A stretch of DNA of 64,000 nucleotides, taken from a virus (Duplodnaviria > Heunggongvirae > Uroviricota > Caudoviricetes). Shown piece by piece: positions 21,001 through 27,000 of this stretch (position 1 is the first letter of the stretch; the number at the start of each line of letters is the position of its first letter). A program made the position numbers. The stretch lies in IMG/VR virus record IMGVR_UViG_2718218360_000002; one strand, 5' to 3'.

Positions 21001-24000
21001 AGTGGGTGAAAAAGTTCTCAGAGCAGATTTTTAAAATTACTGGCGACGAGAATGCGGCAAAAAATGAATTAGAGCCGTGGACACCTGAAGGTGTCGACCC
21101 AAATTATTGCTGGTGGGATGTTGATCCAGTTGATGCTGCAAATGAAGCTATGAGTTATCACAACGATTAATGTCAGGAGGCCGCCCGAAAGGGCGGTAAT
21201 GAAAAGTGACTGAATTAACCAAAGAGAAATTAATCGAAGAAGCCAAATTAAAAATAGCGATTGCGAAATGCTACCCCAATTCAGGGATGGCACGGGTAGA
21301 GGGCGAGTTATTCAAAATTGCACTGGCATCGCTGGAAGCAGAACCGATAGCGTGGGAATGCGGTGAAAACATAATCCTGTTTAACCCTGACACAGTTGAA
21401 GCATACGCAAAACGTGCGGAAATATCACCTAAACCACTATTCTCCGCGCCGCCAGCGCTGGTAGTGCCTGATAAGTTGCCGCGTGAATACAGAAACGGTT
21501 GGCCTCTTGCGTATAGTGATTATGCTGAAGGCTGGAACGACTGCCGCGAAGCCATGCTTCAGGGAGATAAATCATGATTAATCGTATCAAGCTGGAGCAC
21601 ATCCTCGAATATGCCAGGCAGCAGAGGCATATTGGTCAGCATTGTAAAATTCCACCAGGAGATATGGTTGAAATCATGGAGATTGCCATGCGCAAGGCTG
21701 GCAACTCTCCGGTAACTCCGGATGGTTGGATAAGCTGTAGTGAGCGAATGCCGAATACCAAAACAGCCGTTCTTGTTGCCGTGGAGTTTGACAGGAAAGG
21801 TGACTGGCGAATGAAATGGGCTACTTACATCCCGGGGCATCCTGACGCTAATGATGGGTGGATAATTCCTGGTGCGTCGTGGAAACCGTCACACTGGATG
21901 CCGCTACCAGAACCGCCGCAGGAGGTGCGCCAATGATCTGGCCTGAAGCCTTTGCAATTACAGGCGTTGCTATAGCTATTGATTTTTTAGTATATGTTAT
22001 TTGTCGGTGGGGGTAAAAACGTTCGCCGGGATTCACACCAAAGGAGGGAATATGTCGGATGATATTTCACTGGCAATGGAAGGTGCGCTGGCTGTTATTG
22101 CTGTTGTGGGCGTTTACTGCCTGGTTGTGTTTTTGATGGATCGACTAGGGAACTGAATTCATTACGATATGGGAATTCCCATATCGGGTAAAAACGGTTT
22201 GCGGTAAAGCGAGAGTTAAGTAGAATTGCTGCGGGTGCTTGAGGCTATCTGCCTCGGGCATGAACACCAACGGCAGATAGAGAAAAGCCCCAGTTAACAT
22301 TACGCGTCCGGCAAGACGCTTAACATTAATCTGAGGCCATATCTATGCTCTACACACGTAGGTTAGCCTCTTACGTGCCGAAAGGCAAGGAGAAGCAGGC
22401 TATGAAGCAGCAAAAGGCGATGCTAATCGCCCTGATCGTCATCTGTTTAACCGTCATAGTGACGGCACTGGTAACGAGGAAAGACCTCTGCGAGGTACGA
22501 ATCCGAACCGGCCAGACGGAGGTCGCTGTCTTCACAGCTTACGAACCTGAGGAGTAAGAGACCTGGCGGGGGAGAAATCCCTCGCCACCTCTGATGTGTC
22601 AGGCATCCTCAACGCACCCCACTTAACTCGCTTCGGCGGTTTTTTGTTGTTTATTTTCGGTGAGCGTGATGCATCTGGTTGTACCGATGTGGCTGGCTGA
22701 TTCTGTTATTCAGGTGGTTTATTGCTGTTGATTGGCATGTCTTCACGGCTAGAATCGAGGCTCTTAAGTAGCGCGCAGGGATAAGAGGGATGGCCCCCAT
22801 AAGAGGGATGGCCCCCATAAGGGGAGGTGTTTATAGTTCATGGGATTTTTGTTATGAACGATAAGGAATTAATTGCTGCGCTTTCTATACCAGGTAATTA
22901 TGAAGTAATAGTTCTTGGGAATGGTGAGTTTATCGTAATGCCATTGCCATCTGATGTTATTCTGATCAGCAAAGAATCGCATGCGGATTCGGTCAGTTAC
23001 TTCAGCATTAAAAGAGACTAGATTATAATGCTGTAGTAAAGCCAGCCTGAACAACTGGCGTCTGTCGCACCATTACGAGGATAGTAGTGGTGCATTACAA
23101 GAAACTTAACAATTCTGATAATTCAGCCGTCTTTGCCAGCAGGCACGGGCGGTGTTCTCATGCATTCAAATCTGACTGGTTCCAGCATGACCCATGCACT
23201 GAAGAACAGGCCGAATGGCTGATTCAGTGCTACCGCAGGCGTGGTTACGAGTTTCAGAAAGATCTCAGCTTCGATCGTCGTCACTGGATAATCTCCGCCA
23301 GGCTCCCTTATTCCGAACGCCCACCGCGTCCGTCCCGCACATTCCAGCAGCGCATCTGGAGGTAACGTGCGGGTATTACTTCGACCTGTTCTGGTACCGG
23401 AACTCGGTCTGGTTATCGTTAAGCCAGGCCGTGAATCAATGTCAGTATTCCATAACGGCAGAATATTGGTGGAGCCGGAACCGAAAAACATGCGCGGTCT
23501 GCCGTCCGGAGTCGTTCCTGCCGTTCGCCAGCCGCTGGCAGAGGATAAAACATTACTGCCATTTTTCAGCGATGAGCGGGTTATTCGTGCAGCAGGTGGT
23601 GCAGGTGCACTGTCTGACTGGTTATTACGTCACGTGAAATCCTGCCAGTGGCCACACGGCGATTATCATCACAGCGAAACAGTCATTCACCGTTATGGTA
23701 CCGGCGCGATGGTGTTGTGCTGGCACTGCGACAACCAGCTGCGCGACCAGACATCAGAATCACTCGATCAACTTGCTCAGCAGAATCTGGTTGCCTGGAT
23801 GATTGATGTCATCCGTCACGCAATAAGCGGTACGCAGGAGAGGGAGTTATCGCTGGCCGAATTATCCTGGTAGGCGGCCTGCAATCAGGTGGTGGATGCA
23901 CTACCTGAGGCAGTAGCGCGTCGTTCGCTGGGATTACCAGCGGAAAAAATCCGCTCCGTATACCGTGAGAGTGACATCGTACCGGGAGAACAGACAGCCA

Positions 24001-27000
24001 TCAGCATACTGAAGCAGCGCACAAAAAATATTGCGCTGCCACTTCACGTCCACCAGCAACAAAATCCACCACAGAAAAAAACGGTTGTCAGTATCGCCGT
24101 TGATCCGGAGTCTCCTGAATCGTTCATGAAACGACCTAAACGTCGCCGCTGGGTAAATGAGAAATACACACGCTGGGTAAAGACACAGCCGTGTGCGTGT
24201 TGTGGTAAGCCAGCCGACGATCCCCATCACCTGATTGGTCATGGTCAGGGCGGAATGGGGACAAAATCTCACGATATTTTCACGCTACCGCTGTGTCGGG
24301 AGCATCACAACGAGCTTCATGCGGATCCGCTGGCGTTCGAAGAAAAGCATGGTTCTCAGGTTGATTTAATTTTTCGTTTTCTTGATCACGCCTTTGCAAC
24401 TGGCGTGCTTGGGTAAAAGAGGTGACTGATGCTCATAGATTTGGTTTTACCTTACCCGCCGACGGTGAACACTTACTGGCGACGCCGTGGCAGCACATAT
24501 TTTGTATCAAAAGCCGGGGAGCGTTATCGCCGGGCAGTGGCGCTTATTGTTCGCCAGCAGCGACTGAAATTAAGCCTGTCCGGACGGCTGGCAATAAAAA
24601 TTATTGCAGAGCCACCGGATAAGCGCCGCCGTGACCTGGACAATATTCTGAAAGCACCGCTGGATGCGCTGACGCACGCGGGGTTGTTAATGGACGATGA
24701 GCAGTTTGATGAAATCAATATTGTACGTGGAAAGCCAGTATCTGGTGGACGTCTGGGGGTGAAGATTTACCCCATAATGCTTGAAGGGCAGGTCAAAAAA
24801 TGAAACTGGAAGATTTACCGAAATACTACTCCCCAAAATCCCCTGGCCTGACCGATGCATCGGCCTCAACGTCAAAAGATGCGCTGAGTATCACTGATGT
24901 GATGGCCGCGCAGGGCATGACACAGAATCGGGCTGAGATGGGGTTTTCTGCGTTCCTTGGGAAAATGGGCATTAGTATGAATGACAGAGAGCGGGCAACA
25001 GAATTGCTGACAGAATATGCACTCAGTCGGTGTGATCGCGTGGCGGCGTTAAGAAAACTCCCGGCAGAAATAAAACCGGCAGTGATGCGTATTATGGCTT
25101 CGTATGCGTTTGAAGATTATGCCCGTAGCGCGGCGAGCAAAAAACAGTGCCCCTGCTGTCACGGAAAAAAATTTATTGAAAGCGAGGTTTTTACAAACAA
25201 GATCCAGTATCCGGATGGTAAGCCGCCAGTGTGGGCAAAGTGCACAAAAGGCGTGTATCCGTCTTACTGGGAGGAATGGAAAAAAGTCAGGGAGGTGGTA
25301 AAAGTTGCCTGTCCGGAGTGTGGCGGAAAGGGTGAGGTTTCCACCGCCTGTAAGGATTGCCGTGGGCGTGGTGTCGCCATTCATCGTGAAGAGTCGGTAA
25401 AACGTGGTATGCCTGTTATCAGAGACTGCCAGCGTTGTGGTGGTCGTGGCTGTGAAAGACTACCATCAACGGAGGCATTTAATGCCATATGTAATGTAAC
25501 CGATGCCATATCTCTTGATACATGGAAAAAAACAGTTAAACGTTTTTACGATACGCTGGTGGTGCAGTTTGATATTGAAGAAGCATGGGCAGAACAACAA
25601 CTGAAAAAGGTGACCAGATAGCTTTGTTGATTTTTCCCGAATCTGTGGTAAATTTGCCCTAACGATGGGCGTTTTATGCCTGACGTTAGAAGATTTTTTA
25701 CACCCCGCCGCCTGGCGGGTTTTTTATGACTGAAATCGCGTCAGTACAGTAAACGCGCTGGTGGCGGTGAATACCGGTCTTTCAGCTTGCTGGCTTTTTT
25801 GACAAGAGTTATTGGTGTGTCACGTTAACCGAAAAAGGGAAAAAGACATGCTGAAACAGCAGGATATGACAGAAACCGCCAGAGCAGTGTTTAATGAATT
25901 AAGCGTCACCGAACCGGCGACAGTCGGGGAGATTGCGCAGAATACTTACCTTTCACGCGAACGCTGCCAGTTAATACTGACCCAGCTTGTTATGGCGGGT
26001 CTGGCAGACTATCAGTTCGGTTGTTACAGACGCCTTCAGTCCTGAAGGCTTTTTTATTTGTGGTAAATGGGCGGCTGGTGGGTGTTAGGGGCACTCACCA
26101 GCCATCTGCTCATGCGTCTGGATCACAAGCAAACCTCAGGCCCACTGCTTTGCGCAAAAGCAGAATGAGCCTATCAGAGACAGGCTTAATGATCCATGTT
26201 TAACACTGTAAAAATATCCAGTTGTGAGTTGATCAACGCTGACTGCCTGGAATTTATCCGGTCGTTACCCGAAAATTCTGTTGACCTGATAGTCACGGAC
26301 CCGCCGTACTTTAAAGTGAAGCCTGAGGGCTGGGATAACCAGTGGAAGGGCGACGATGATTACCTGAAGTGGCTGGACCAGTGTCTGGCGCAGTTCTGGC
26401 GGGTGCTGAAACCTGCCGGAAGTCTTTACCTGTTCTGTGGCCATCGCCTGGCATCTGACATTGAAATCATGATGCGTGAACGCTTCAGTGTGCTGAACCA
26501 TATTATCTGGGCGAAGCCGTCCGGACGCTGGAACGGGTGCAACAAGGAAAGCCTGAGGGCGTATTTCCCCGCCACAGAGCGCATTCTGTTCGCGGAACAT
26601 TATCAGGGGCCGTATCGTCCGAAAGATGCCGGGTATGAGGCGAAGGGCAGGGCACTGAAACAGCATGTGATGGCTCCGCTGATTTCTTACTTTCGTGATG
26701 CGCGTGCTGCCCTGGGGATAACGGCAAAACAGATAGTGGATGCCACAGGAAAGAAAAACATGGTGTCGCACTGGTTCAGTGCCAGTCAGTGGCAGCTACC
26801 GAACGAAAGCGATTATCTGAAATTACAGGCGCTGTTTGCCCGGGTGGCAGAAGAGAAGCATCAGCGGGGTGAACTGGAGAAGCCCCACCACCAGCTGCTG
26901 GAGACGTATACTTCACTGAACCGGCAGTATGCGGAACTACAGAGTGAATATAAGCATCTGCGGCGGTATTTTGGCGTGACGGCGCAGGTGCCGTACACGG

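Follow-up and report, generated by a model that had tools for sequence, protein, structure and literature searches.

How many genes occupy positions 23087–24416 of the phage sequence IMGVR_UViG_2718218360_000002, and do the first two of them form a functional unit of their own? A first-pass annotation of this tailed-phage record (IMG/VR; the whole analysed stretch of 64,000 nucleotides is referred to here as the window) had described a gene for 92 amino acids (aa) and a "Cys/His-rich" gene for 168 aa, one nucleotide apart, as a possible uncharacterized two-component function lying in front of a separate 175-aa HNH/DUF968-like gene and rusA. The open reading frames (ORFs) are all present as described, and so is the one-nucleotide gap between the first two (TAA at 23363–23365, C at 23366, GTG at 23367–23369). 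The 168-aa and 175-aa ORFs, however, are one ydfU gene split by a single TGG-to-TAG mutation. We regard it as very probable that the interval holds two genes, not three, belonging to the nin-like (late-early) operon of a lambdoid prophage from E. coli O157:H7; this judgement covers the explanation as a whole, that is, the split ydfU, the small gene coupled to it and the functions proposed for both below.

One ydfU gene and its amber codon

The features on which the reassignment rests are the following.

23367–24416, plus strand: ydfU ortholog, pseudogene; DUF968 family, phrog_96; 349 codons with one internal amber
23367–23873, plus strand: 168-aa ORF with a GTG start; codons 1–168 of ydfU
23871–23873, plus strand: amber codon TAG in place of Trp169; G-to-A at 23872, TGG in relatives
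23889–24416, plus strand: 175-aa ORF; Pfam DUF968 (PF06147), E 1e-69
23844–24398, plus strand: footprint of the Pfam DUF968 domain, about codons 160–344, with the amber codon inside

Both ORFs lie in the same frame, and translation of 23367–24416 gives 349 codons with exactly one internal stop; RefSeq/PGAP annotates the same interval as a single coding sequence (CDS), 'DUF968 domain-containing protein', a pseudogene with an internal stop. Strain CV261 has a 99.3%-identical prophage in which these 1,050 bases, with TGG at codon 169, specify an intact protein of 349 aa (WP_001302870.1), and at the protein level the TAG allele differs from this intact allele at codon 169 only. The intact allele in turn aligns with YdfU of the E. 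coli K-12 Qin prophage (b1560, 349 aa, DUF968) at 85% identity over all 349 residues without a gap, including the SWWA motif at the mutated site. The two halves are also collinear on the phrog_96 profile ('HNH endonuclease', 334 positions), at positions 1–168 and 175–333, and the gene order is hokD, ydfU, Q. Full-length collinear similarity and synteny together identify the gene as a ydfU ortholog. When the 168-aa piece was used in an exhaustive search, 184 cluster representatives came up, whose full-length members are mostly about 320–370 aa long, with the N-terminal domain as residues 1–168 and the DUF968 C-terminus following it. The "168-aa gene" is a truncation artefact of the nonsense mutation, being the N-terminal fragment of the very DUF968 gene that it was thought to precede, and the proposed two-component function of the 92-aa and 168-aa pieces disappears, since two of the apparent genes are one. 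This correction is the main value of the reassignment.

The mutated residue is not an incidental one: W169 belongs to only five invariant columns in an alignment of 26 diverse homologs. The stop falls inside the DUF968 domain, because the Pfam match covers residues 160–344 of an intact homolog (P0241). The C-terminal fragment in the window still scores 234.4 bits against a cut-off of 27.8, entering the profile at position 16, and the domain in the window is interrupted by the TAG at codon 169, so that the gene belongs to the family by descent, as a pseudogene. W169amber most likely inactivates ydfU, and has done so recently. Over positions 22300–24850 the window is matched at 100% identity by 22 complete E. 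coli genomes, which mostly bear the label O157:H7; the exact TAG-bearing 61-mer occurs in 22 of 5,426 complete E. coli genomes, and the stretch itself is carried by 1,113. Among 80 IMG/VR loci and the genome loci that we fetched, codon 169 is TGG in every copy in which it can be read, except for two rearranged or decayed ones, and most ydfU ORFs are intact (348–354 aa). Genomes matching this region of the window do so at 5–8 places per record, and the loss of one ydfU copy would presumably cost little. For the window itself the matter is of little weight: its ydfU is one recently disabled copy of a prophage gene that is widespread and redundant.

Two other explanations of the stop codon deserve consideration. 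In one, the split is functional and the cell makes the 168-aa N-domain and the 175-aa DUF968 nuclease separately, the latter from the GTG at 23889. Free-standing HNH-only proteins do exist in this group, such as the 96-aa YbcO type, and the split halves carry no further nonsense or frameshift mutation, although this would be expected equally from a recent mutation. The in-frame GTG lies five codons past the TAG, and weak re-initiation there could give a free C-terminal fragment, which tells against a simple loss of the gene. Yet no Shine-Dalgarno motif is apparent 5' of this GTG, the stop replaces an invariant Trp within the Pfam domain, the allele is limited to the 22 genomes while most other copies are single ORFs, and PGAP calls a pseudogene; we consider a functional split very improbable. 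In the other explanation, full-length YdfU is still made, either because the TAG arose through an error of sequencing or assembly or because it is suppressed or read through. The allele is a single base away from the intact one, but the identical 61-mer recurs in 22 complete genomes of strains with differing names and recorded sources. As for suppression, the 64-kb window encodes no tRNA gene and hence no suppressor, and the usual amber suppressors would fail to put the invariant Trp back. This explanation seems to us even harder to credit than a functional split, and inactivation of one ydfU gene by the amber codon is preferred over both.

The two domains of YdfU and a proposed function

What the intact protein might do can be approached through its two domains, the elements of which map as follows.

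24192–24320, plus strand: His-Me (HNH) finger core; C276-x2-C279, D284-D285-P-H287-H288, D303, C310-x2-H313-H314, H318
23367–23870, plus strand: YdfU N-terminal domain, codons 1–168; beta-hairpin at residues 105–118, helix at 119–125
23643–23645 (C93), 23667–23669 (H101), 23718–23720 (C118) and 23727–23729 (C121), plus strand: putative structural zinc site

The C-terminal domain bears the full signature of group 7 of the His-Me finger nucleases, and the columns of its zinc and histidine motifs are conserved (C276, C279, C310, C/H313, H287-H288, H314 and H318). HNHc_6 scores 23.7 bits (E 4e-5) in the window, below the cut-off of 26.6, and 31.8 bits in homolog P0241; a PDB sequence search with the C-terminal half gave chance zinc-finger matches only. 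DUF968 (YdfU) and DUF1364 (YbcO, PDB 3g27) were previously placed together in group 7, where RusA and Q were noted as neighbours and a role in recombination or repair was proposed (PMC5714182); related analyses have also been published (PMC4999995, PMC4118853). YbcO of DLP12 and phage 82 has the zinc site of Cys and His residues and the HH...H motif in common with the C-terminal domain of YdfU (hhalign 64%, E 6e-5), and likewise has RusA and Q as neighbours; in mEp237-type phages a homolog of the 92-aa gene lies directly 5' of it. YbcO is a single domain of 96 aa, to which YdfU adds the 168-residue N-terminal domain and a linker of about 60 residues. The lambda NinG/Rap protein (PF05766), a branched-DNA endonuclease, occupies the equivalent slot 5' of Q, with a small-protein homolog directly 5' in 60 of 80 loci. 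Its sequence similarity to YdfU is marginal (hhalign 6–19%), and a functional equivalence of the two would follow from position.

Judged by its family and by the neighbouring genes, intact YdfU would be a DNA-branch or recombination nuclease working alongside RusA. In the scheme that we propose, N-mediated antitermination would let transcription continue past hok and the small gene to ydfU, rusA and Q; the GGAGG of the small gene, together with a GTG one base past its TAA, would couple the translation of ydfU to that of the small gene; and YdfU would act as a metal-dependent DNA-structure nuclease at the place that belongs to NinG/Rap or YbcO in lambdoid phages of other types. In the window and in 21 other sequenced O157:H7 genomes, the G-to-A transition that turned the invariant Trp169 codon from TGG into TAG splits ydfU into the apparent 168-aa and 175-aa ORFs, and the activity would be lost. 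A scan of 22000–25000 for promoters and terminators gave counts no higher than in shuffled sequence, and Rfam recognized no RNA family within 23087–24416.

The N-terminal domain is less familiar. Its sequence matches nothing in Pfam, NCBIfam or the PDB, and its profile shows no hhalign similarity to the C-terminal domain, YbcO, NinG, NinB or DUF1367. Two candidate readings of YdfU were dropped on such comparisons: an internal duplication within YdfU (N-domain against C-domain profile, negative) and an Orf/NinB-like domain (negative against lambda NinB and DUF1367), the latter having been proposed by Curtis and colleagues for Gram-positive DUF968 proteins (PMC4118853). Across 26 sequences the only conserved positions of the domain are D122, N140 and four that are given over to Cys or His, namely C93 (26/26), H or C at 101 (25/26), C118 (26/26) and C or H at 121 (26/26). 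The C-x2-[CH] spacing of the last two equals that of C310-x2-[CH]313 in the C-terminal HNH core. It is in these four positions that the earlier "Cys/His-rich" label survives; as a statement of composition it is weak, with 3 Cys and 8 His among 168 residues. An AlphaFold model built from 43 sequences (predicted local distance difference test score, pLDDT, 89.9) is confident and places strands at 105–110 and 113–118 and a helix at 119–125; the domain may bear a weak resemblance to HNH folds. Fold searches were mixed, Foldseek against the PDB returned no significant match, and a general-base His at the end of strand 1 is not conserved, position 108 being His in 5 of the 26 sequences. On balance we lean, by a modest degree, towards a domain with a structural zinc and a beta-beta-alpha core that is degenerate and probably not catalytic.

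Two further observations concern how ydfU varies. In the proteins P0254, P0255, P0258, P0262, P0263 and P0279, the YdfU N-domain is joined to antiterminator Q, capsid, tail-tip J or tail-fibre domains; these fusions probably record deletions in prophages undergoing decay and not true domain architectures. In IMG/VR loci L005–L084, the C-terminal half of ydfU falls into two classes of identity to the window, about 63–75% and 88–100%, independently of the N-terminal half (76–97%), which implies recombination within ydfU, probably at the linker.

The small gene and its nuclease neighbours

Once the two ORFs of ydfU are joined, the pair that is left consists of the 92-aa gene and full-length ydfU. 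The relevant features are these.

23087–23365, plus strand: 92-aa small-protein gene with a GTG start; ORF and PGAP CDS WP_001304183.1, 'hypothetical protein'; phrog_1212
23077–23081, plus strand: Shine-Dalgarno-like GAGGA, 5 nt 5' of the GTG of the 92-aa gene; of presumed function
23358–23369, plus strand: coupling junction; GGAGG in codons W91-R92, then TAA, C and the GTG start of ydfU

The 92-aa ORF is truly coding and under purifying selection. All 48 distinct DNA alleles found in 85 loci are intact, and the ratio of nonsynonymous to synonymous substitution rates is 0.18 overall, falling from 0.50 in the N-terminal 26 codons to 0.12 in the core and 0.035 in the last 22 codons. Its DNA is present in 4,528 of the 5,426 E. 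coli genomes. Residues 27–92, the conserved core, span all of phrog_1212 (profile positions 1–66 of 66, E 5.9e-36); residues 1–26 are variable and predicted to be disordered. In an AlphaFold2 model (pLDDT 70.5) the core is beta-alpha-beta-beta with a C-terminal helix. W31, Y49, D63 and W91 are conserved in it.

The earlier description of this gene as uncharacterized holds: phrog_1212 is labelled 'unknown function', the protein matches no Pfam or NCBIfam family, antitoxin families included, and a PDB sequence search gave chance matches only. Likewise, neither the 92-aa family nor either domain of YdfU corresponds to a named lambda Nin protein, hhalign probabilities against NinB–NinI being at most 6%; alignment to the NinB-like DUF1367 gave a negative result too. 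Lambda NinE and NinF are comparable in that they too are small ORFs between a NinB-like gene and a nuclease gene; their similarity to the 92-aa family is not detectable (hhalign probability 0.1–0.2%), and phages of Erwinia and Enterobacter carry NinF as well as the small protein. Rem, which the synteny of Qin would lead one to expect here, was considered and rejected, as BLASTP finds no alignment. With regard to whether both members of the supposed pair would turn out to be established nin proteins, the outcome is divided: one is part of YdfU/DUF968, a known family that is experimentally uncharacterized, and the other belongs to no characterized family.

The tight coupling of the 92-aa gene to the gene behind it, by contrast with the pairing itself, is borne out and conserved across loci. 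The junction TGGAGGTAA[C/T]GTG (read as TGG-AGG-TAA-[C/T]-GTG) is invariant in 85 loci, with nearby codons varying synonymously, and the K-12 Qin prophage has the same junction between the small gene and ydfU. Its GGAGG lies 4 bases 5' of the ydfU start, where the small gene has its final two sense codons; a ribosome-binding site in the last codons of the preceding gene is the classical arrangement for translational coupling. While these signals are observed directly, the coupling that they suggest would be a property of the small gene and full-length YdfU, the true coupled pair, of which the second partner is a pseudogene in the window.

The order small gene, one base, ydfU is found in 79 of 80 IMG/VR loci. 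A second clade of ydfU, about 50% identical to this one, has a homolog of the small gene 5' of ydfU in 80 of 80 loci, abutting it in 75. Word-seeded protein searches, a profile query among them, had made the 92-aa family appear confined to Escherichia and Shigella; tblastn against phage genomes showed this to be a sensitivity artefact, with homologs (30–46% identity) in 60 records from at least 10 genera, namely phages of Escherichia, Klebsiella, Salmonella, Edwardsiella, Yersinia, Hafnia, Cronobacter, Erwinia, Pantoea and Enterobacter. Alignment of the 92-aa family with homologs from 8 other phages or contigs by hhalign gave probabilities of 97.7–99.5%. As a caution, a narrow distribution drawn from word-seeded protein searches alone is misleading for this family.

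In these phages, too, the small-protein homolog is usually followed by a nin-region nuclease: YbcO/DUF1364 in mEp237, phiES15 and a Klebsiella phage, and NinG in Edwardsiella GF-2. Across 80 IMG/VR loci with an mEp237-type small protein (L181–L260), a NinG-like ORF comes next in 60 and a YbcO-like one in 18. Homologs of 65–73 aa are seen at 2504–2704 of mEp237 (L174), 1504–1701 of L200 and 1837–2034 of L178. The gene 5' of the small protein was looked at in three loci (in mEp237, in a Klebsiella phage and on one IMG/VR contig), and all three run DUF1367/NinB-like gene, small protein, nuclease, optional RusA, Q. The small protein marks the slot directly 5' of a junction nuclease, whichever nuclease family fills that slot.

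What this placement means is a separate matter. Going by where its gene lies and by what is known of the families concerned, the small protein could serve the nin nuclease as an accessory factor, and its placement thereby suggests a testable partner for nucleases whose roles in vivo are poorly defined. A more specific proposal would make phrog_1212 (65–92 aa) a dedicated partner of the YdfU/DUF968, YbcO/DUF1364 and NinG/Rap nucleases, as a specificity, loading or inhibitory subunit, and would separately give YdfU an unrecognized second, non-catalytic zinc/HNH-like domain at its N-terminus; we put this forward as a tentative reading and think it rather unlikely as stated. Several points weigh against the functions proposed for the two genes. 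The adjacency could reflect either a functional partnership or merely a conserved gene order in the nin region. In distant relatives of ydfU the 5' gene is ANT, KilA-N, MT-A70 or an unrelated 57-aa ORF, and those ydfU genes, despite their other 5' neighbours, still lie just 5' of Q. In one locus (L070) a 90%-identical small gene abuts a YdfU N-domain of only 46% identity, which argues against tight co-evolution. Finally, our literature searches found no experiment on YdfU nuclease activity or on the function of the small protein.

A quite different role would have the 92-aa ORF and ydfU act as a toxin-antitoxin-like or immunity pair, a small inhibitor with a nuclease toxin, or as an anti-phage defence module. 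In its favour are the layout, with a small 5' gene translationally coupled to a nuclease gene, and the conserved adjacency to His-Me nucleases, and the hok/sok toxin-antitoxin locus just 5' shows a region tolerating such cassettes. Against it, the nuclease is knocked out in the window while the small gene is intact, distant ydfU genes do without the small gene, no protein matches a PADLOC defence model, and no antitoxin family of Pfam or NCBIfam is matched. The module also sits in the nin recombination slot, with RusA beside it and Q 3', and NinB-like genes accompany its homologs elsewhere. We therefore hold a toxin-antitoxin or defence role to be improbable, and prefer a small nin-region gene coupled to a putative recombination nuclease.

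On the whole the locus is largely ordinary: a pseudogene that RefSeq had already annotated, beside a conserved hypothetical gene. That an unnamed small gene is nearly always coupled directly 5' of NinG/Rap, YbcO or YdfU is of modest value to the biology of phage recombination; two minor leads are this linkage of the small protein with the slot for the nuclease and a possible second zinc/HNH-like domain in YdfU.

Surroundings of the locus and the K-12 counterpart

The genes on either side of the pair are the following; further 5' lies the Hok toxin gene hokD, recognized by Pfam.

22854–23021: 55-aa ORF between hokD and the 92-aa gene; phrog_34610 (unknown function), PGAP WP_000998188.1
24429–24803, plus strand: rusA, Holliday-junction resolvase; Pfam RusA, E 1.5e-16, and PGAP annotation
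24800–25621, plus strand: antitermination protein Q; Pfam Antiterm, E 7.6e-50; ends the nin-like region

The K-12 Qin prophage is laid out like the window in that the GTG of ydfU follows the 92-aa ORF by one base and ydfU lies between hokD and the Q antiterminator. The two differ in the W169amber of the window and in rusA, which in the window is inserted between ydfU and Q; rem is absent from the window, and the 55-aa ORF at 22854–23021 fills the slot that rem holds in Qin. In the K-12 MG1655 record (NC_000913.3, 1644306–1644584, minus strand), the 92-aa ORF between rem and ydfU carries no feature. This ORF is about 74% identical to the 92-aa gene of the window, with the same TAA-C-GTG junction, and seems to be a conserved gene that the annotation of the reference genome lacks.

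Several RNA families score above the Rfam gathering threshold elsewhere in the window: the sok antitoxin RNA at 22233–22407, beside hokD; the small RNA STnc100 at 27334–27534; the small RNA AgvB (anti-GcvB) at 27537–27598 on the minus strand; and DicF at 15751–15802, also on the minus strand.

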